A stretch of DNA of 33,419 bases from a virus (lineage: Duplodnaviria > Caudoviricetes). The translations under genes and the position numbers were made by a program. The stretch spans positions 1-33,419 of IMG/VR virus record IMGVR_UViG_3300020180_000077. One strand, given 5' to 3'. A model generated the notes under the pieces. The model did not search any database, was not told where the DNA came from, and was given only the letters and a program-made list of their open reading frames with translations. Numbering within the stretch: position 1 is the first letter of the stretch; each line of letters starts with the position of its first letter. Below are positions 1,187-29,903 of the stretch, one piece after another.

Positions 1187-1552
1187 ATGCTATATCAACT
1201 ACGTTTTAAATCATTCATCCTGACTACAGGAACGAAGGTCGGAACAGCTACCCATACTTCTGCGTACACCCCAGTGCCTACTCCCATGACTAGGACTACA
1301 GGAACTGGCACATTCACACTAGGTCCTGTTACTACGCCCCGTGGGTATTTCGTGCTGATTCGCACTACAGGTTCTTTGAGCAAATTCGAATTAGCCGACG
1401 AAACCTTGGGAGAATGGAAGAATTCAGATTTGTCAAGTATAATGGCCACTTCTGGGGTAGAAGTGCAATGGACATCTTTAGAATCAATGGCAGAAATGTT
1501 AAAAATTTACGGTGAACATGAGCTGATTAGGTTTTTGATGAAAGATGTCTAA
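1187..1552 (+). CDS. hypothetical protein (Thr-rich N-terminal half)
   Basis: 121-aa ORF whose ATG lies 1 nt after the primase stop. No recognisable motif. Confidence 0.65.
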   Translation: MLYQLRFKSFILTTGTKVGTATHTSAYTPVPTPMTRTTGTGTFTLGPVTTPRGYFVLIRTTGSLSKFELADETLGEWKNSDLSSIMATSGVEVQWTSLESMAEMLKIYGEHELIRFLMKDV

Positions 1553-1566
1553 ATCTTTGACGATCT

Positions 1567-3087
1567 TTACGCCTTATACGGGAACATCAATTTCATTTTC
1601 CCGCAATCCCAAATCTTAAAAAGCCCATCCAATTCTGCGTGCTGATCTTCGGTCATTCCCAGAGGTGTTTCTACAGAAGACTTCTTTCTTGACTGTTTGG
1701 TTATGATTTCCATTTTCTGATTGCTGTAGAAATAGTCCGGTTTTGACATGCCAACAATCTCCCATCCTGCAGCCAAGTAACCTTTGCCATCTGAAATCGA
1801 TAGATCTGCAAAACTGAAAATATTTTCTTTAAAATGAGAAGTAGCAAGAAGCGCAATTTTAGACAGGCATCCCGACACTGTGACGCCTGACTTAAAACAA
1901 AGACGTTTCAGAAAATACTTCTCGACGAGATTCTGGCGATGCGATTTACCGAAAACTGCACAGCCTATAAGGATCCCATCTCGAAAAACTCCGATATTAA
2001 AACTACCAGCGGATGTTGAACCTTGCATGTGATGCATCTTGCAAAACTGGGAAGCAGACGCAGGGGAAATTTGTGTAAAAACACACTTTCGGCTGCCGAT
2101 TCGTTCTGGATTGAGTCGCAACGCTGATCGGATAAAATCTTTTGTCTGTTCCTGTCGCTGTGCCCAGAAACATTCAAAAATGTGGATTATACGAATCCCT
2201 TTTTTACGAAAAAAGGCGGTTTTAGCTGCATGATAGGACGGCTTTTTATATTTAGTAGAATGCCAATAAACACCGTTGTATTCAAACCCGAGATTAAGAG
2301 CTGGAACATATACATCAATTTCGAAGCCAGAGTCGTTATGTTTCACAGTTTCTATTCCAAGAGAATTAATCCAATCTTTCAATTCCTTTTCACCTTTTGA
2401 TTCAACAATAGAACCAACAGGGAATGTATCAGAACCATACTTTGACTGGCAGGTGAGCTTGGATTTTTCTTGAAATTGTGAAACAGCAAACGCAGAACGC
2501 TCACCATATTTTTCCAACATGACTTCTTGAGCCTGTTTATTGGCGTTTTTGTGCCATGCGTGCTCCGTCGAATCTCCTGTGCGGTGCACAAAGCTTTCTT
2601 GGGCTTTAACATATCCAAGTTTTGACAATGCAATCGTTCTAGAATCTTTAGACGTGAATCTCCCATCATTGGAGCATTTTTCAGAAGGATGAAGGGACTT
2701 CTTGGCTTTAGCTACTGCTTTTGGTGTAGCAATAAACGATCCATGCGTCTCGTCTAGAATCGAACATGGTTTGTGGAATGCCTTATAGGAATCAGCAACA
2801 ATGGCAACACCAGGAGGCATTAAAGATTGTGCATGATCATACGAATAGCGGTTCTTTTCACTCAACACCCGTTTCTTATTTTCGGTCCACCAATCAGGAT
2901 GTCTTTTGCTGCTCCTAGCAATCGAAAACGGAGTTGATTGAAAGATTCCAAAGTCTTTATCGACAAAAAGCGCTGTTTTACTGAAAGAAACAAATGAAGA
3001 TTCTATCAATGACACGTCTGATCTGCTGGACAATAATTCCAGCGCTGCCTCTAAACTAATAGAATTGTGAGCTTTTTGCTTTTTCAT
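1567..3087 (-). CDS. Hef-like homing endonuclease 1 (variable N-terminus + Vsr/DUF559-like nuclease + Mom-like GNAT C-terminus)
   Basis: Nuclease motifs SKGEKEL...EIDVYVP...FEYNGVYWHS...YHAAKT...GIRIIHIFE. C-terminal motifs LKRLC...IFSFADLSISDGKGY...GW...PDYFY...IWDCGK. Start is uncertain (ATG 3087 or 3126); the ORF-track start at 3261 overlaps the capsid gene. Confidence 0.8.
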   Translation of the reverse strand: MKKQKAHNSISLEAALELLSSRSDVSLIESSFVSFSKTALFVDKDFGIFQSTPFSIARSSKRHPDWWTENKKRVLSEKNRYSYDHAQSLMPPGVAIVADSYKAFHKPCSILDETHGSFIATPKAVAKAKKSLHPSEKCSNDGRFTSKDSRTIALSKLGYVKAQESFVHRTGDSTEHAWHKNANKQAQEVMLEKYGERSAFAVSQFQEKSKLTCQSKYGSDTFPVGSIVESKGEKELKDWINSLGIETVKHNDSGFEIDVYVPALNLGFEYNGVYWHSTKYKKPSYHAAKTAFFRKKGIRIIHIFECFWAQRQEQTKDFIRSALRLNPERIGSRKCVFTQISPASASQFCKMHHMQGSTSAGSFNIGVFRDGILIGCAVFGKSHRQNLVEKYFLKRLCFKSGVTVSGCLSKIALLATSHFKENIFSFADLSISDGKGYLAAGWEIVGMSKPDYFYSNQKMEIITKQSRKKSSVETPLGMTEDQHAELDGLFKIWDCGKMKLMFPYKA

Positions 3088-3121
3088 TTCTTCATCTGTC
3101 TCGTTGTTCCTATTTAACGTA

Positions 3122-3167
3122 ATCATAACATGTTTTTTCTTGAATTCAAACCATTGATGTATATAAT
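3122..3167. promoter_or_regulatory. divergent sigma70-like promoters sharing the palindrome TTGAATTCAA
   Basis: Plus strand: TTGAAT (3140-3145), 16 nt, TATAAT (3162-3167), toward the capsid gene. Minus strand: TTGAAT (3149-3144), 16 nt, TATGAT (3127-3122) with an extended -10 TG, toward endonuclease 1. Confidence 0.5.
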
Positions 3168-3175
3168 GAATTCTG

Positions 3176-3212
3176 TAGACATCGCGGAGATGTCTAAGAT
3201 TCGTTTTAGACA
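3176..3212 (+). promoter_or_regulatory. two overlapping, mutually exclusive hairpins in the capsid 5' leader
   Basis: TAGACATC-GCGGA-GATGTCTA (3176-3196) and TGTCTAAGA-TTCG-TTTTAGACA (3191-3212) share TGTCTA. Confidence 0.55.
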
Positions 3213-3234
3213 AATCCCTTTTATGGAGTCCCTT

Positions 3235-4743
3235 ATGTCGTTTAGTCCCCTTAACAGTCAAGAGCTACAGGTAATCGCCAGCAAACTAGAATCGTTGAAT
3301 AAATCTTTTGCCGCGGGATTTCCGGGGCTCGCGAATGCAGGGCGCACTGGCACATCTGCTATTGCGATCGATTCGCTAGACAGCGTTGTTCGTTCGATTA
3401 CTCTCGAAGACGAAGATTTCCTCCTCACGAAGGAAATCCAGACAATGAAGGCTACACAGTCTACATTCAGCTATGTTATCAAGACAGCTACCCGTTCCGG
3501 TGTCGATACCTGGGGTATCGAGACTTTCCTGCCACAAGAAGACATCGGTCAGTACATGCGTGTTGCTGAAGTCCTTCGTGTACAGGGCATCCGCAAGACC
3601 ATTACCCACATGGCACAGTTGATCAACGACGCAGGCGGCTATATGCTCGACCTCGAAGCTGAAAACGACAAGAACGCAGCTATGTCCATGGCTGAAGGAC
3701 TTGAGCGCGCTCTTTATGTCGGTGGTGACCTCTATCTCGCCGCTGATGGCTCGATCGACTCCATGCTCGCTGCTAACCAGAACGCACCAGTTCGCCACAT
3801 CCGCGGAATCCAGGCTCAGATCCGTGAAGGAAACAAGTCTGCTCGCGGTATCATCGGTGACTTCGTTGGCTACGGTAACAACCGCGCTACAATGTTCGAC
3901 GCCAAGGGCTCTGTCCTTAGCCGCCAGCTTGTTGACAAGGTAGTTGCTTCGGTTCGCGAAAACCGTGGTCGCATCGTAGAAGCTCACTGTACAGTTGACC
4001 AGCTTCGCCATTTCCGCGCTACGTTCTTCCCGTTCGAACGCGGGGACATCGGTTCCAGCTACGCCATCCGTGGTGCAGGCGTCGAAGCTGAACCTAAGTC
4101 CGGCTTCTCGCTTTCCTCGGTTGTTGGTGAAGTTCAGTTCATCCCGTCGGTATTCAAGTATACTCGTTCGTTCCCACAGCCACTCTTCACTTCTGCTGGA
4201 AATCCTCCTGTAGTCGGTACAGTTGTTGCCGCTGCTCAACAAGCTGGCGTTACCACTTTCAAAGCTGGTGATGTTGTTCGTTATGTAGTTCAGGCAGTTT
4301 CGATTCTCGGCATGAGCGACGTTTCTGTTGAAGTAGCTCAGACTGTTGCTGCTGACGGCAACAAGCTAGTTCTTTCGGTCCCTGCTTCTGCTACTGCAGA
4401 AGAGTTCCATGTCTACCGTACAGAAGTTGGCGGTGCTACTGGCACTTGGAAATTCTGCGGCAAAGTCATTGCAGCTCGCGGTTCAGCTACTCTCTTCGTT
4501 GACGCTCAAGCTATCCTTCCAGGACTTGACAGTATCGTGTTCCTTCCTAAGGCTCAGTTCCGCGCGAAACTCGCAGTTCTCGGTCAGATGGTAAGCAAGA
4601 TGAAGCTTGGACTCCGCGGATTGGTCGAAGAAACCGTCTATGTTTCTTACCTTGCTTGCGTACTCGAATATGTTCGTCATCATGGCCTCCTCGACAACGT
4701 GTTCCACGAACTCCAAGACGAGCAGTACGGTATCGCTCCTTAA
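3235..4743 (+). CDS. major capsid protein (Twort/K/SPO1-like, with inserted Ig/FN3-like domain)
   Basis: GGAG RBS at 3225-3228 precedes ATG 3235 (502 aa). N-terminal LNKSFAAG...AIAIDSLDSVVRSITLEDEDF resembles Twort-like capsid proteins. Inserted domain YVVQAVS...S...FHVYRTE...FVD...LPG. Strong high-expression codon bias. Confidence 0.9.
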   Translation: MSFSPLNSQELQVIASKLESLNKSFAAGFPGLANAGRTGTSAIAIDSLDSVVRSITLEDEDFLLTKEIQTMKATQSTFSYVIKTATRSGVDTWGIETFLPQEDIGQYMRVAEVLRVQGIRKTITHMAQLINDAGGYMLDLEAENDKNAAMSMAEGLERALYVGGDLYLAADGSIDSMLAANQNAPVRHIRGIQAQIREGNKSARGIIGDFVGYGNNRATMFDAKGSVLSRQLVDKVVASVRENRGRIVEAHCTVDQLRHFRATFFPFERGDIGSSYAIRGAGVEAEPKSGFSLSSVVGEVQFIPSVFKYTRSFPQPLFTSAGNPPVVGTVVAAAQQAGVTTFKAGDVVRYVVQAVSILGMSDVSVEVAQTVAADGNKLVLSVPASATAEEFHVYRTEVGGATGTWKFCGKVIAARGSATLFVDAQAILPGLDSIVFLPKAQFRAKLAVLGQMVSKMKLGLRGLVEETVYVSYLACVLEYVRHHGLLDNVFHELQDEQYGIAP

Positions 4744-4763
4744 TCAGCTAGCTGGTTACAATT

Positions 4764-4794
4764 AAACCCACATCTTTTGATGTGGGTTTTTTTT
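4764..4794 (+). terminator. intrinsic terminator after the capsid gene
   Basis: AAACCCACATC-TTTT-GATGTGGGTTT followed by a T-run. Confidence 0.9.
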
Positions 4795-4819
4795 ATACTC
4801 AAAACTAAAGCTTTGTGGT

Positions 4820-4840
4820 ATCCTCTATAAACAGAGGGAT
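4820..4840 (+). promoter_or_regulatory. RBS-masking hairpin before endonuclease 2
   Basis: TCCTCT-ATAAAC-AGAGGG. The 3' arm is the RBS of ATG 4842, and TATAAAC spans the end of the 5' arm and the loop. Confidence 0.5.
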
Positions 4841-4841
4841 C

Positions 4842-6332
4842 ATGAATTTACAAGAATTGAAAATAACTGATCCGATAAAAGATCGATACGAATACGCAGA
4901 ATATGTGATTTCCCAATGTAGTGATTGTGGAACATCCGGAAGAAATAAAGTCGGTAATCTGATAGCACGATTAAAATCCAAAGGGTATCCCTGGGCTTGC
5001 ATCGTATGTCAAAAGAAAAGAGCCTCAGAAGCTGCGAAAATAAGAGAATCTAAATATTCATCAGAAGAGAAAACAGCCAAGGCTCGAAAATCTCTAGAAA
5101 TGTTTCGGTTGAAAACTGGACTAAACAATCCTATGGATTTGTCTGGAGCTAGAGATGTTCAAAAACAAGCAACGAGTACTGAATCTTTCAGAAAGAATTG
5201 TTCAGATCGTAACAACAGGTTGAACCTAGATCCAGAATATAAAAAGAAACTGAGCGAAGGGCAGCTCAAAAGGATTGCAGAAAACCCAGAACAAGCCCTA
5301 GAACAAACAAAGAAATTATTAGCTGCTTCTAGAAGCACAGAGGCGCGGACGAAAACAGGTATAGCAATATCAAAGATTTTCGTCGAACAACCAGAACGAA
5401 TGGAAAACGGTACGCTGGAATTACATAAGTGGAATACAGATCCAGAATTAAAATTCGAGCGGTATAAACGATTGCAAGAATCCAACCGAGCTAATGATTT
5501 CACTTCTAAAGGCGAAAAAGAAGTTCTCACTTTTATACATACGTTGTTTCCAGATGCCAAAAAGGGATTCGTAGGGAATAAAGAAGTAGATATCAAAATA
5601 GAAGAAAAGAAACTCTGTATAGAATACAACGGCACATATTGGCATTCTGAAAAAAAAGTAGGTAAAACTTACCATTTCGATAAAACCGTAATGTGCGAGA
5701 AACATGGCTATCGCCTGATCCATATATTTGATTTCGAATGGGCGACTAGGAAGCTGCAAGTAATAGACTTCATTAAGTCTGCTCTTGGAGTGAATGAGAA
5801 AATAGGGGCACGGAAATGTGTGCTCAAGGTTGTAGATAGGGCGGATGCTATTAGCTTCATTAGCCATAACCACATACAAGGCTCTATAACACACGGTTTG
5901 AACCTATGTTTAGGCTTGTACTACAACGATGAATTAATATCAGTAGCTACGTTCGGAAAGCATCATCGCGGGAATGGCGAATGGATTCTGAATAGGTTTT
6001 GCTGTAAACACGGGGTGAATGTAGTAGGTGGACTCAGTCGTTTAAGCAAGAGAGCTTCAGAAACGCTGGAATCAGACATATATTCATGGGCAGATAGAAG
6101 ATTTTCCCAAGGCACTGGTTACTTAGCATCGGGGTGGGAAATCTCAAGCGAATTGCAGCCAGATTACTTCTATATTAAAGAAGGTGAAGCCGTGGCTAAA
6201 CAGTCCCGGATGAAATCCAAGATGAACACGCCTACAGGTATGACAGAAGCGCAACACGCTGCGCTAGACGGGCTAGAGAAAGTCTGGGACTGCGGCAAGA
6301 TCAAAATGATATTTAAACGTATTGGGCGATGA
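4842..6332 (+). CDS. Hef-like homing endonuclease 2 (Zn finger/helical N-terminus + nuclease + Mom-like GNAT)
   Basis: AGAGGG RBS before ATG 4842. N-terminal CSDC...CIVC. Nuclease SKGEKEV...EVDI...IEYNGTYWHS...YHFDKT...GYRLIHIFDFEW. C-terminal LNRFC...GGLSRL...IYSWADRRFSQGTGY...GW...PDYFY...VWDCGK. Confidence 0.85.
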   Translation: MNLQELKITDPIKDRYEYAEYVISQCSDCGTSGRNKVGNLIARLKSKGYPWACIVCQKKRASEAAKIRESKYSSEEKTAKARKSLEMFRLKTGLNNPMDLSGARDVQKQATSTESFRKNCSDRNNRLNLDPEYKKKLSEGQLKRIAENPEQALEQTKKLLAASRSTEARTKTGIAISKIFVEQPERMENGTLELHKWNTDPELKFERYKRLQESNRANDFTSKGEKEVLTFIHTLFPDAKKGFVGNKEVDIKIEEKKLCIEYNGTYWHSEKKVGKTYHFDKTVMCEKHGYRLIHIFDFEWATRKLQVIDFIKSALGVNEKIGARKCVLKVVDRADAISFISHNHIQGSITHGLNLCLGLYYNDELISVATFGKHHRGNGEWILNRFCCKHGVNVVGGLSRLSKRASETLESDIYSWADRRFSQGTGYLASGWEISSELQPDYFYIKEGEAVAKQSRMKSKMNTPTGMTEAQHAALDGLEKVWDCGKIKMIFKRIGR

Positions 6333-13958: not shown

Positions 13959-15872
13959 TTAGAAGCATATGGTGATACCACCGGCTGCATTAATTATCTT
14001 CTCTTCTTGACTAGGATTCACACGTATTCCGTATTCTTTGTACATATGCTCGTCTATTAATTTTTTCATACCATCGACAGAATCAACAAGAACAGGGTTA
14101 GTAGCGATTTCATGTTCCTTCTGCCCTCCTGCTAGATGGGACACCTGACTCGAAATGAAAGGATCTATTGCGTAACGGAGGGCATCGCACCTATGAGTAA
14201 AATCATCATCGGCGAAATGGTTGAAATCGAACCCCATTGCTGTTTTTAGATATTGCCAAGATTCCATGTCTTTAACCAGAGACATCGACAGGGCGTTGTA
14301 GGGATCATCCAATATCATGAATTGGGCTTCTTGCTTAGAAGCATTCCACAGGCGGGTGCGTATCCAGGAAACTCCAGTTTCAATTCTTGGTGGCTTTGTC
14401 CCGCGAGAAGGCATGCCGATAGAAGCAGCGAACGTTGGAGAAGACTTGTCAGCGGTGTCAGGACATACCAGGTCGAACCCATAGACATCATAAATTCTGT
14501 TTTTTACATAGACTAACCAGTCCTGATTAGAAATACCTGGAGCAGTCTCGACGTGCAATACGAGGAGTTTGTCAGAACTTTTCTGATACGCGACCAGGAC
14601 GGCGGCGGCATAATCCACCCAGCCAAAGTCAACGCCGCAATTCAGTCTCCAGCCTTCATTCCGCAATTCTTGAATAAATTCTTTCTTAGTCGGAATCCGC
14701 AATGAACCATCGTGGTTCGTTGGATAGACGTTAAACGCAAAATTCCAGCATTCCTGCACTTTCTGGTAATGCTTGTTTTTATCGAATTTATTGTAGACGA
14801 CGCCTCCAGACTCTGGGCGCAGATTGATTAACTGTGCATTGATTTTATCTGAATCCGCAACTTCTCGAATCAAATTCCCCACGAAGTCGACAGTTCTTAG
14901 ATTCGGAGACGTGCTAGTTTGATTGATTGCGTCTGTCCTGCAGGTGACAAATATCGGGCATTTCCTGCAACCTTCGTACGCGGGGACTAAGTCGTAGGAA
15001 TCCCTCATGGATTCAGACAACTCTGTGTGGGCGACGATATCCAAGACCGCCAATGTTTCTTTATGTATAAACAGGTCTATACGGGGCAATTCAGGCAAGT
15101 GCCGTTCTGGGAGGCAAGGTTTTGTCCAATCCGTAACGTTCCACCTGTGCAGGTGAATACCATTGGCAGGATCCTCTGACAAATTGATCTTTTCTTGCAT
15201 CGGACCAACGGCTGTTTTTCTTGACGATAGATACACGAAAATCGGCGGTCTGCCGTTGGCGTCAGGGTCGGCGATGAATGTCGATTCAGAAAGAATATCT
15301 TTATCAATCAAGTCTGTTTCGTCGAAAATCAATAACGACGCACGGCTAGAGTTAGCACCTTTTTTGGTAGCGGTGATCACCTTTAATTTTGCGTAATTAG
15401 ATTTCTTGTATTCGTTGACAGGCATCGAACGCAATAATTTGAGACGTTTGTTATCCGACTTGAAATGTTTGTTTATAATCGGGTTGTCTAGGAAGCGATC
15501 CAAGTAGTCGATGCACGCGATTGATTGATCTAGGATGGCTGCTAGATGGACGATATTGCGCCCGAGGTGAACCATGAAAAGGAATTCTAGTACTGACGCA
15601 CAGAGCGTTTTCGCGCTATTTCGGCTGGCCGCCACTACGAACGTAGTCTTATTGGGGTTGCCAGTGAGCCCCGATTCGTAAACTTCCCATATAAAATCCA
15701 TTGGATTAGAATTGCTGAAAGTACTTACGACCTTATCAGGTAATCGAATACTCAAGAAAGTTTCCAACCATTGCTGCAATTCTTTCTTAGAACGACAGGG
15801 CGTCCAAAACTTCTGTTCGTACAGACGTTCTAGGCGTTTTTGGAGTTCTTCTTGATTCGATTCTACTGTCAT
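13959..15872 (-). CDS. terL: terminase large subunit
   Basis: Walker A-like VAASRNSAKT, Walker B LLIFDETD, motif III YLSS, RNase H-like nuclease GVDFGWVD and HRCDALRYAI. Confidence 0.93.
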   Translation of the reverse strand: MTVESNQEELQKRLERLYEQKFWTPCRSKKELQQWLETFLSIRLPDKVVSTFSNSNPMDFIWEVYESGLTGNPNKTTFVVAASRNSAKTLCASVLEFLFMVHLGRNIVHLAAILDQSIACIDYLDRFLDNPIINKHFKSDNKRLKLLRSMPVNEYKKSNYAKLKVITATKKGANSSRASLLIFDETDLIDKDILSESTFIADPDANGRPPIFVYLSSRKTAVGPMQEKINLSEDPANGIHLHRWNVTDWTKPCLPERHLPELPRIDLFIHKETLAVLDIVAHTELSESMRDSYDLVPAYEGCRKCPIFVTCRTDAINQTSTSPNLRTVDFVGNLIREVADSDKINAQLINLRPESGGVVYNKFDKNKHYQKVQECWNFAFNVYPTNHDGSLRIPTKKEFIQELRNEGWRLNCGVDFGWVDYAAAVLVAYQKSSDKLLVLHVETAPGISNQDWLVYVKNRIYDVYGFDLVCPDTADKSSPTFAASIGMPSRGTKPPRIETGVSWIRTRLWNASKQEAQFMILDDPYNALSMSLVKDMESWQYLKTAMGFDFNHFADDDFTHRCDALRYAIDPFISSQVSHLAGGQKEHEIATNPVLVDSVDGMKKLIDEHMYKEYGIRVNPSQEEKIINAAGGITICF

Positions 15873-16810
15873 ATTCTATAAAGTCTTTGCCGTGGAGTTT
15901 TGCCTTTCAGGCCAGTGCCAGACAGCAAATTTTTGTATTTCCTGAATTCACACGAACAGTTTTCGAGATTAGACGCAGTGATAAATACAGGCTTCCCCCT
16001 GATCATCAAGGGGTTAAGATCTGTGATTGGCTGCGTGTGCATCAATGTCTGAATAACGTCTGTCGCTTTGGCTTTCGGATTGAACGCCAGGGCCGAAGGA
16101 GTAGCACCTGGCCCGATGAACACTTTGTGGAATTCATTAATGAATTCAGGGAATTGGTAAGCAACGTCCATTAGAACTTCCATAGACATGAATCTGGCGT
16201 TGAAGCCAACCAACGGGATTATGGCTTCGACTAATTGGATGATAGACCAATCATTTTTGCTAGAAATTATTGCAGCAATTTGTTTGACTCGTTTTGGGAG
16301 AAAATCAAAAATAAACTCTTGACGAGTCGAGCAGCCAGTGCTAATTATGCCTGCAATCGCGCTGTTGTAGGCTGAAGTCCACCGGACCCCTTCGATGCTG
16401 TCGAATTTGTCTCGGGCGGCTTGTAACGTGGACTCGGAAAAATCCAACAAGCCAACTTGTTCCACTATGTTGGGCAAACCTACCCAACGCATGTAGAAGA
16501 AATTCAGCAGAGTTAATTCTAGATCGTGCAATACCGGGGCAGCTAGCTGATGAAGCGCGACAGTGGTCTTATCCAATTCTCGATACACATTGCAGAATTT
16601 ATTCTTTTTCAAGATAATATCTTCTGTCCAAGGGAACGCTTGGCCTGAATCTTTTTTATGAAAAATGTTCATGCGTTCAGAAACAAAATCCCAAAATTCT
16701 TGCTCTAGCTTAGAATCGACAGCTACAAGATCAATTTTCGTATCTCTCGGGTCAATTTGACATTTATTCCAATGATTATAAAGAACCGAAATAGCGGGGA
16801 TTACAGTCAT
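15869..16810 (-). CDS. aGPT-Pplase1 / HMUDK-helical-domain family protein (HhH-glycosylase-like fold, thymine hypermodification)
   Basis: Family motifs FVSERMNIF.KK..G..FPWTED.IL...KFCNVYRELDKTT, TSAY, FMSMEVLMD, IGPGA and LENCSCEFRKY. Confidence 0.85.
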   Translation of the reverse strand: MTVIPAISVLYNHWNKCQIDPRDTKIDLVAVDSKLEQEFWDFVSERMNIFHKKDSGQAFPWTEDIILKKNKFCNVYRELDKTTVALHQLAAPVLHDLELTLLNFFYMRWVGLPNIVEQVGLLDFSESTLQAARDKFDSIEGVRWTSAYNSAIAGIISTGCSTRQEFIFDFLPKRVKQIAAIISSKNDWSIIQLVEAIIPLVGFNARFMSMEVLMDVAYQFPEFINEFHKVFIGPGATPSALAFNPKAKATDVIQTLMHTQPITDLNPLMIRGKPVFITASNLENCSCEFRKYKNLLSGTGLKGKTPRQRLYRI

Positions 16811-27580: not shown

Positions 27581-28552
27581 ATGAGTTTCCACAGCCGCCT
27601 TAAATCACAGGATTTGCACTCTCCATCTAGAGAGTTGGTTGCAAACACAACTGGATCAACTATTGAAGCTCTACGCTGCGTTGCTTTAGTTTCTCAGCCA
27701 GGAACAATCCCTTTAGTAGCAAAAATAAATAACCCGACTATCCAAGTAGTTCGAGGAGTTACAGAACTAGAGATCACTACTGGGCAAGCCGGTTTCATGA
27801 CGTCTTTAGGTTTTATGCAAAACGTGGACACTTCGCCATGGACTGTAGGCACCAGATTATATTCGTCAATTACTGGATCTTTATCTATAGTTCAAGCAGG
27901 GTTGCCTGTGGCGACAGTTTTGCGACAAAACGCTACTACCGGCATCTTGTATGTCGATAATACTGGTATCACACAAGCAGATATCGCTTCTTCGGTTATC
28001 ACGTCTGGATGGAAAACTGACGGAAACGTCGGGACAAATCCAACTGTTAACTTCGTAGGTACCGCCGACGCAGAAGGGCTAGCTTTCAGGACGTCGAATT
28101 CTGAACGTATGAGGATCGACGAAAATGGCCGTTTCGGTTTCGGCACACAACCAGAAAATTTCTTTCACATAAAATCACATGCGAATTTTCCATTGTCTGG
28201 CCACCAAACTGCAACGTTCGCTGGAGTAACTAATTCAACTTCTTTGACTCCAATTTATTCATATGGCGTTCCAATAGGCGCTACGTGTATTGTCACTGTC
28301 GTAGTGGCCGCACGCGAGAGTTCCAATAACAGAGCTGTGTTTAGAAAAACTGTAGGAGTTTTTAGAGACGGGCCAACTGCACAAAAAATTCAACAAGAAC
28401 AATCAGATTTCACTAGCAGATCTGATGGAGCTTTTGAAGCAAAATTCATTATTTCTGGCCCTAATATGACTCTTAGGGTCAAAGCACCCAATGCTAATGA
28501 AACGTCTTGGACGGGCACTGTAACCATAGATTGTGTTTCTACGCCTACGTGA
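27581..28552 (+). CDS. putative head decoration/fibre protein
   Basis: N-terminal cement/decoration-like NTTGSTI...GV....I..G..G....G...NVDTS.W.VG..LY. Central W...GN.GT....FVGT.D...L.FRT...ERMRI...G.FG.GT fibre motif. C-terminal domain shared with 29974..31323. Confidence 0.65.
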   Translation: MSFHSRLKSQDLHSPSRELVANTTGSTIEALRCVALVSQPGTIPLVAKINNPTIQVVRGVTELEITTGQAGFMTSLGFMQNVDTSPWTVGTRLYSSITGSLSIVQAGLPVATVLRQNATTGILYVDNTGITQADIASSVITSGWKTDGNVGTNPTVNFVGTADAEGLAFRTSNSERMRIDENGRFGFGTQPENFFHIKSHANFPLSGHQTATFAGVTNSTSLTPIYSYGVPIGATCIVTVVVAARESSNNRAVFRKTVGVFRDGPTAQKIQQEQSDFTSRSDGAFEAKFIISGPNMTLRVKAPNANETSWTGTVTIDCVSTPT

Positions 28553-29903
28553 TCACGATAGAATACAATTTCTGACCAGCATCATAAATTTTGTGCCAAC
28601 CAAGTTCATCTGCGTGTTGTTTTTCGCTTAATTTTCTGATGTCCATATTGGCTCTGCACCTGAGACGATTGAAAGTATGTCTGAAATCAGTCCATTTCCA
28701 CGACATGACTGTTTTTTGTGATTCCCACCCAATGTGTTCCAGGAACGTCCCAGTACCGTATCTCAGATCAGTCCAGAAAGTCCATTTCTGATGCAGATGT
28801 TTTATATATTTAAATAATTTAGAAAATCCACCAACCACATACACATTTATCCGAGTACACAATCTGGAAATATCTCCTATACCATCTTTCTTTTTGTAAG
28901 AAAGAATCATTACTAATTTCGATTCATGAAATAGCCCAACATGTTTGGCGTTAAAGCTGCCCATTAAATGGTTCTCGTTTAAGAAACTAGTCGCGTCTGC
29001 TTGGCTGACTGTACGTATTTCACATTTTCTCGCTTGTATTTTGATATTCTGGCCAAGAAGGTTCTTGCACATAGACGCAACAATATTCGGCTTATCGATT
29101 ATTTCATCTTCTCTGAACTGCAAGAGCCTGATATTCCGTGATTCAAGCTGTTCTCTGGCAGCGAAATGGCGATGACGATTTTCTTCTTTAGAAGCAACGG
29201 AATGCCAATACAGACCGTCTACGTTAACGAATATGTTTTCGGCTAATTGGAAATCTGGCCTCTGACGCCCAATATATTTATCGTATCTCGTGCCAATATT
29301 CATTTGTTGAAAAAATAATTCTATATTCGTAAGATGTTTTTCCAAGGGCAACCCTGCGGCTAGTCTAGCCCGGATGCAGCTCTCAGAAAGCTGAGTTGCG
29401 TCTTTCAATTGAACCATGGAAAGTTCTTCGCCTTGATGTTTATGCAAAACACGAGCCTTGCCTTTAGTTCTGTTAGAGAATTTCTCAACCCAACCATCTG
29501 GATGCCCAGATGTTTCACTGTATAAAAGACTCGAAGGCTTGGCCCAAAAAGTACCAACATGTCCTGCCTCAGTAAATTCTGCTATACTGTCTAGACTCTT
29601 GTAAGTTTCTGGAACAATTTGTATCCCGCGAGATGCTAGCCTTTTCTGGATGATGTCGACTCGTATCTTTTCTTGGAGTTTAGAAGCACATAAACTTCTA
29701 TTCATTTTACTTCGATCTGGGTGATTCCCTTTTCCTCTAGCCATATCGGTAGGTTTTCTCCAGAAAAGACCGAATTGAATATCTTCAAATTGGCAAAGAG
29801 TTTGAGAATCTATAAAAGATTCAGGGATCAGTCTAACGATAAAAGGATTGACCATTTTAATTTTGGTTTCAAAAAAAGACCAATCTTTACGAATGAACGT
29901 CAT
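28545..29903 (-). CDS. Hef-like homing endonuclease 3 (HTH-containing N-terminus + nuclease + Mom-like GNAT)
   Basis: GAGGA RBS before ATG 29903. RPDF...VNVDGLYWHS...RLLQFREDE; KIQARKCEI...FLNENHLMG; ISRLC...GGFSKLFK...TDLRYGTG..L...GW...IYDAG. Inserted antisense within the fibre cluster. Confidence 0.8.
   Translation of the reverse strand: MTFIRKDWSFFETKIKMVNPFIVRLIPESFIDSQTLCQFEDIQFGLFWRKPTDMARGKGNHPDRSKMNRSLCASKLQEKIRVDIIQKRLASRGIQIVPETYKSLDSIAEFTEAGHVGTFWAKPSSLLYSETSGHPDGWVEKFSNRTKGKARVLHKHQGEELSMVQLKDATQLSESCIRARLAAGLPLEKHLTNIELFFQQMNIGTRYDKYIGRQRPDFQLAENIFVNVDGLYWHSVASKEENRHRHFAAREQLESRNIRLLQFREDEIIDKPNIVASMCKNLLGQNIKIQARKCEIRTVSQADATSFLNENHLMGSFNAKHVGLFHESKLVMILSYKKKDGIGDISRLCTRINVYVVGGFSKLFKYIKHLHQKWTFWTDLRYGTGTFLEHIGWESQKTVMSWKWTDFRHTFNRLRCRANMDIRKLSEKQHADELGWHKIYDAGQKLYSIVIT

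Follow-up and report, generated by a model that had tools for sequence, protein, structure and literature searches.

Three probable Hef-type homing endonuclease genes with a Mom-family domain in an uncultured myophage

Three genes that join a Vsr-like nuclease to a C-terminal domain resembling the DNA-modifying enzyme Mom of phage Mu were analysed in a stretch of 33,419 nucleotides of viral DNA (Duplodnaviria; Caudoviricetes), positions 1 to 33,419 of IMG/VR record IMGVR_UViG_3300020180_000077, referred to below as the window. Genes for a primase, major capsid protein, portal, terminase, sheath and head protease, recognised in a PHROG scan, identify it as a piece of a large myophage; the 33 kb window belongs to a 48 kb IMG/VR contig (L003), and its relatives measure 169-187 kb. 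A first-pass annotation, made from the sequence alone, had placed nuclease and Mom-like fusions at 1567..3087, 4842..6332 and 28545..29903, and an intact open reading frame (ORF) was found at each of the three positions. The genes, called here copies 1 to 3 of the Hef type, and the features around the major capsid gene are as follows.

1567..3087, minus strand: Hef copy 1 (P0001), 506 aa, ORF intact, head-to-head with the major capsid gene
~2119-2400 and ~1591-2100, minus strand: nuclease and Mom-like domains of copy 1
3229..4743, plus strand: major capsid protein gene (PHROG 752), with copies 1 and 2 on either side
4764..4789, plus strand: terminator-like hairpin of 11 pairs with a T-run, in the gap that separates copy 2 from the capsid gene
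4842..6332, plus strand: Hef copy 2 (P0002), 496 aa, ORF intact, directly behind the major capsid gene
5502-5786 and 5802-6308, plus strand: nuclease and Mom-like domains of copy 2, which also has two N-terminal CxxC pairs
28545..29903, minus strand: Hef copy 3 (P0003), 452 aa, ORF intact, antisense between two putative structural genes
~29055-29312 and ~28563-29039, minus strand: nuclease and Mom-like domains of copy 3, from a more divergent subfamily

The part common to the three proteins is the C-terminal ~280 aa. Copies 1 and 2 are 46% identical (E 1e-74), and copy 3 is 23-29% identical to either of them (E 1e-19 to 1e-24). The N-termini are unlike one another, with the CxxC pairs confined to copy 2 and 'F-x-x-x-P...HP[DS]' repeats present in copies 1 and 3. 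Alternative longer TTG/GTG starts exist for the three ORFs at 3261, 4815 and 29921. Copies 1 and 2 have the full set of nuclease residues of the Vsr/EDxHD type (S-x-x-E, D, E-x-N-G-x-x-W-H and H), those described for I-Bth0305I (PMC3239194); in copy 2 they are E225, D250, E261, N263, H268 and H278. Copy 3 keeps the D and both H residues, with N at the E261 position. The motifs listed in the first-pass annotation are exact in copies 1 and 2, whereas copy 3 departs from them, reading NVDGLYWH for E.NG.YWH (a nuclease variant unlike other Hef members), TFWTD for S[FW]AD and GTFLEHIGW for G..Y.A.GW. Among the 220 unique cores (of 236) that span both domains, on which the residue counts for the family are based, the EDxHD positions are near-invariant: D250, E261 and H268 were each kept in 219 and H278 in 217.

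Copy 2 aligned with the homing endonuclease U5 Hef at 39% identity over 253 columns (residues 248-487, E 5e-46). Both domains are spanned by this match, so the studied homing endonuclease itself carries a Mom tail, and the Hef-like architecture named in the first-pass annotation was borne out. All three copies match PHROG 3339 (the family corresponds to PHROG 3339/559). U5 Hef is reported to be a site-specific nuclease that cleaves in the ribonucleotide reductase region, in nrdB (PMC2988022), and Taylor et al. (2011) placed Hef in the EDxHD family of I-Bth0305I (PMC3239194). A sequence search of the PDB returned no Mom match, only a weak match to I-Bth0305I (PDB 3R3P, E 0.042), whose active site agrees with that of Hef at the E, D, N and H positions. 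Unlike Hef, I-Bth0305I is intron-encoded and without a Mom domain, and its last Asp is replaced by His in the Hef clade (217/220), by reading of the motif spacing.

U5 Hef and its relatives resemble the window copies in combining a nuclease with a Mom-like tail, in standing free beside core genes and in occurring several times per genome. They include proteins of Campylobacter Fletcherviruses, F-LimIII/VII/VIII/X of LIMEstone and Acinetobacter proteins named 'nuclease/acetyltransferase', a label that some family members bear in GenBank; in phage Abraxas a Hef-like gene lies between capsid genes. The window copies differ from the U5 Hef family in their N-terminal regions, their insertion sites and their uncultured host. 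A search with copy 2 matched 415 of 50,697 phage records, U5 Hef among them, and 1 of 72,556 plasmid records. Up to 12 Hef places per genome were counted in Fletcherviruses and 5 in Wroclawviruses, and a profile of the Mom domain matched 12,048 clusters at 50% identity (E<=1e-30). We regard the three ORFs, with high confidence, as free-standing homing endonuclease genes of the Hef type; as genes, they are unremarkable representatives of a family that is already known and very large.

The C-terminal domain was compared with Mom by sequence and by predicted structure. Copies 1 and 2 scored 30.6 and 33.0 bits with the Pfam Mom model PF25680 (cut-off 27.1); copy 3 did not match this model and matched the Hef family's own Mom-domain profile at 101 bits. 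In profile-profile comparison with 121 Mom proteins the Hef domain gave a probability of 95% (E 7.6e-9), a signal that was strong only with profiles on both sides, as hhalign of a single sequence against Mu Mom reached a probability of only 3%. The fold check called for in the first-pass annotation was run with AlphaFold and Foldseek on residues 215-496 of copy 2. The model (pLDDT 96) has a GNAT fold, and its best PDB match was Mu Mom, 8BV8 (Foldseek E 1.1e-7; Z 13.3, rmsd 4.0, 158 residues aligned). Ordinary GNATs tie with 8BV8 at Z ~13, but over ~133 residues, and the Hef domain has an insertion where the essential helix-turn-helix (HTH)-like insertion of Mom lies. As the first-pass annotation had surmised, Pfam, profile-profile and Foldseek comparisons all point to a GNAT of the Mom family. 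The greater part of the Mom active site is retained in it. The Hef domain differs from Mu Mom in being fused to a nuclease and is only ~16-20% identical to it.

The fusion of the two domains is nearly obligate. When loci were selected by their nuclease, 77 of 79 had the Mom domain in frame, one had it in another frame and one had none, in a sample drawn from the best 80 of 617 matches and biased towards close relatives. Conversely, in 137 of 150 proteins selected by their Mom domain the Vsr site was intact, in 6 it was changed or partial and 7 had none, some of the last being short and some carrying other domains. In P0280 and P0274 a Mom-like domain without Vsr stands behind T5orf172 (GIY-YIG-like; P0280) or DUF7487 repeats, and in relative G003 an 831-aa ORF (L115:2927-5422, minus strand) fuses a GIY-YIG nuclease and NUMOD repeats to a complete Hef, with both Vsr and Mom. 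A search for shorter members returned four proteins of 152-259 aa, three of them on contigs of <1.5 kb, and so did not make a good case for stand-alone members in the Hef clade. The protein of L138 has a Vsr nuclease of the Hef clade followed by only ~66 aa ending in a 'VENCG' motif, a stretch that looks like a Mom tail reduced to a remnant.

The distribution of the genes was examined next to their insertion sites. In run X10, a contig of depth 12 joined window position 1510 to 3158 through 98 other bases, skipping copy 1; such a joint was seen in one of the four runs compared, and the other three gave none. The flanking pieces differed from the window at 77/1016, 20/172 and 9/415 bases, the last set lying within 3158-3572, and the X10 strain is ~88-98% identical to the window in aligned stretches. 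A small Thr-rich ORF lies at 1187-1552, between the primase gene and copy 1, and is strongly diverged in the strain without copy 1, where positions 1215-1339 are replaced; this ORF may have arrived with the copy 1 element or may hold the element's target. Copy 2 is present on a second X10 contig, where its 5′ end has diverged. This part of copy 2 (window 4792-5010, the Zn-ribbon region) diverges between strains far more than the remainder, with ~24/58 substitutions within the first 64 residues between P0002 and P0004, and a change of target specificity is possible. In comparison with an 88% relative, the Mom domain of copy 2 is 94% identical, the nuclease 93% and the N-terminus 82%.

Among 12 capsid-gene loci of other viruses, 4 had a Hef gene in the stretch examined and 8 had none there; five syntenic relatives with a 77% identical capsid protein (L004-L007 and L097) are without copies 1 and 2. 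At more distant loci a Hef gene lies upstream of the capsid gene (L010, L103 and L110), downstream of it (L008, L100, L101 and L105) or downstream and inverted (L102). At the site occupied by copy 2, L100 and L101 carry near-identical Hef alleles (L100:7636-8946 and L101:4213-5679) that differ by an in-frame deletion of 51 aa just before the nuclease, with the nuclease and Mom domains unchanged. Genome-wide, a complete relative (G002) has no Hef gene, G003 has three, G004 gave one clear match and G008 about 13 full-length matches. Searches with the genes flanking copy 3 returned the window's own contig only, or one weak match among 5 genomes.

The upstream neighbours of Hef genes were classified by a scan of their first 300 aa, for 62 of 77 neighbours, after 15 near-duplicates, tandem Hef genes and contig-edge pieces had been dropped by eye. 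Core genes accounted for 42 of the 62: 23 tail tube, 5 sheath, 4 capsid, 2 terminase, 2 baseplate, 2 other virion and 4 replication or recombination genes. Of the other 20, 2 were Hef-like, 3 fell into unknown families and 15 matched nothing. The tail tube genes (loci L018-L094) are mostly head-to-head with Hef and form an insertion hot spot. In phage Deifobo (OR805293; L197:1-4495) a Hef gene overlaps the first and abuts the second of two annotated DNA polymerase ORFs, the picture of a split polymerase gene. Presence or absence between relatives, together with core genes as neighbours, is what one sees with free-standing homing endonucleases, and the major capsid gene is a candidate target of the two copies that flank it.

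Each Hef would, on the reading that we put forward, cut a long site in the neighbouring core gene of a co-infecting relative and be copied in by break repair. The Mom-family tail would act only at the target site to which Hef is bound, where it would most likely mark adenine in the phage's own copy and so damp self-cutting. Homing combined with such site-local self-marking is a tentative reading, a little short of probable as regards the role of the domain; the near-obligate in-frame fusion and the conserved pocket described below both speak for homing with a constrained Mom domain. Spelled out fully, Hef would be a self-immunising homing endonuclease that uses an amino acid from a charged tRNA to mark its own site, so that only unmarked copies are cut, a proposal that we find possible and on balance somewhat doubtful. 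In work by Sandegren from 2005, U5 Hef reportedly cut unmodified DNA of its own phage in vitro, which would call for a mark of this sort; the report serves here as a lead only.

A broader use of the same two domains had been suggested in the first-pass annotation, which saw a one-polypeptide element that both cuts and modifies DNA. The idea is already a published prediction: for jumbo-phage Mom-REase (restriction endonuclease) fusions, Iyer et al. (2021, PMC7824862) foresaw the same cut-and-protect role. Mom would momylate a short motif across the phage's DNA, leaving the nuclease to degrade unmarked host or competitor DNA. The fused Mom GNAT, with its conserved fold and pocket, agrees with this proposal, as do the related Mom domains joined to other nuclease domains, e.g. 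T5orf172 in P0280. A genome-wide restriction-modification element, however, is poorly supported by genes that behave as optional, site-specific homing genes: the prototype U5 Hef is site-specific (PMC2988022), and Hef genes are optional between near-identical strains, stand beside core genes and reach ~13 per genome, with a single match among the plasmid records. The Hef-less relative G002 uses a stand-alone Mom, and the window phage has a separate gene (15869-16810, minus strand, adjoining the terminase gene) with the helical domain of a 5-hydroxymethyldeoxyuridine (5-hmdU) DNA kinase (PF18723, 77.6 bits), which suggests that the phage has its own thymidine hypermodification pathway apart from the Hef genes. 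Modification of the whole genome by Hef is unlikely, and we consider the restriction-modification reading as a whole quite improbable; the present data favour site-specific homing over a reading of the type of Iyer et al.

In the main text of Iyer et al. the words 'Hef' and 'homing' do not occur, and the fusions are not tied to homing there. The 'five momylating enzymes' of PA5oct match the five Hef places in the Wroclawvirus Deifobo and are probably the same as members of the Iyer set. The restriction resistance of PA5oct has been ascribed to modified G, with liquid chromatography coupled to mass spectrometry (LC-MS) reported for F8 and 14-1 only, and Campylobacter phages are cited for dADG modification only. 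The search profile of Silva et al. was built from Mom-only sequences, and their text and two of its three supplementary files mention no nuclease fusions. The first-pass annotation had known of no demonstrated activity for the domain, and our literature searches likewise returned no experiment on the Mom domain of Hef; the supplement of Iyer 2021 and the third supplementary file of Silva 2026 may list or test such fusions.

We next asked how far the Mom pocket is conserved. Mu Mom uses Gly-tRNA as the donor of a glycine that it attaches to adenine at N6 (PMC13219725). It needs R111, S124, D149 and R151, and its HTH-like insertion is essential (PMC13219725; PMC7261163); R151A abolishes activity (PMC13219725), and mutants of H58, Y59, Y159, W48 and W181 are much reduced (PMC13219725; PMC7261163). 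R111 has been given a role in recognising the substrate, and S124 and Y59 one in binding the cofactor (PMC7261163). Residues H344, R385, S399, D418, R420 and Y427 of copy 2 correspond to H58, R111, S124, D149, R151 and Y159 of Mu Mom, and all six are kept. Across the 220 cores the equivalents of H58 and R111 were each kept in 219, on a par with the catalytic residues of the nuclease, and both were present in 150/150 of the Mom-selected set; S124 was kept in 177, D149 in 199, R151 in 172 and Y159 in 193. The full H, R, S, D, R set occurred in 126/220 cores and 98/150 Mom-selected proteins, at ~38% mean domain identity. Copy 3 keeps these five scored residues without Y159. W181 was not among the common residues of the Hef cores and was found in 79/116 stand-alone Moms.

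Several observations weigh against an active self-marking domain. Y59 is kept in 0/220 cores, and at least one of the five scored residues is absent in 92/216 cores with an intact nuclease. Independent changes numbered at least 25 at S124, at least 13 at D149 and at least 22 at R151. Copy 1 has Ser at R151, with H, R, S, D and Y kept, and U5 Hef has Asn at D149. Stand-alone Moms close to Mu (116 of the 121) are invariant at H58, Y59, D149, R151 and Y159, and in pairs matched at 50-60% identity R151 differs in 24% of Hef pairs vs 0% of stand-alone Mom pairs, D149 in 10% vs 0% and S124 in 33% vs 5%, which bears out a relaxation in Hef. The Hef lying inside a split DNA polymerase gene of a Wroclawvirus retains H, R, S and R and has Asn at D149; it may already have disrupted its target, and its Mom residues suggest that the domain is kept where self-marking is perhaps unneeded. 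Finally, a sliding-identity scan of the capsid gene against 12 relatives, which are too diverged for the purpose, gave no clear co-conversion tract, and the cleavage target site of the Hef copies was not located by it.

On a rival reading the Mom-derived domain no longer has to carry out any transfer and either grips target DNA, perhaps by using R111 and H58 to hold a flipped base, or serves to dimerise the EDxHD nuclease, with self-immunity coming from target-site polymorphism as in other free-standing homing endonucleases. In its favour, S124, D149 and R151 were lost repeatedly while the nuclease stayed intact, and Y59 throughout; the invariant R111 is the residue of substrate recognition (PMC7261163), I-Bth0305I and Mu Mom are both reported to be dimers, and the near-obligate fusion fits a structural role as well. 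On the other hand, most members retain the whole catalytic set at low domain identity, and many substitutions (D to N, S to G) are mild ones. The Hef-less relative G002 also tempers the comparison: its stand-alone Mom (L118:4263-4907, G002:C1 ~115265-115831; PF25680, 112 bits) has the equivalents of H58, Y59, R111, S124, D149 and Y159 and has Ala at R151, so that the control made of close Mu relatives is narrow and overstates the strictness of Mom. A non-catalytic domain is a possibility that we take seriously without holding it probable, and a DNA-gripping role is nearly as likely as site-local Mom activity.

Taken together, the sequences indicate a Hef Mom pocket that is under selection but remodelled. 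Such a pocket fits either a transferase that has been altered or a base-binding module that is non-catalytic; an obligatory genome-wide protector fits it less well. We lean slightly towards a Mom domain that is catalytically active in most members. The domain might also be an active GNAT with another acceptor, which could be a protein, a tRNA or the DNA end left by cutting, and might steer repair to recombination or regulate the nuclease. The invariance of H58 and R111 amid an otherwise remodelled pocket is compatible with this, as is the wide variation of GNAT acceptors, described as unpredictable from structure even for Mom; no direct sign of it was seen, however, and the nearest structure and family are those of the DNA-adenine enzyme Mom, which makes it very improbable.

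The hairpin at 4764..4789 would damp read-through into copy 2; it is a consensus match only, since 5 such sites were found in comparison with 4.2 expected. A promoter scan of the window was at chance level (8 vs 8.4), and no tRNA genes were found in it.

What the present analysis adds to the published prediction is the near-obligate fusion (77/79) and a Mom pocket that is conserved yet variable across the family. The role of the domain can be tested directly, as a 2026 paper described the chemistry, structure and essential residues of Mom (PMC13219725) and phages with 5-12 copies are in culture. The window itself offers a natural contrast, in which copy 2 keeps the five scored residues, copy 1 is without R151 and a near-identical strain is without copy 1. 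Were the domain to mark its own target, it would represent a new self-immunity mechanism for homing endonucleases and a site-directed DNA modifier for biotechnology, in effect a natural programmable, site-specific DNA aminoacylase. Discrimination between self and non-self in homing would then be epigenetic, not sequence-based, across more than 12,000 clusters.

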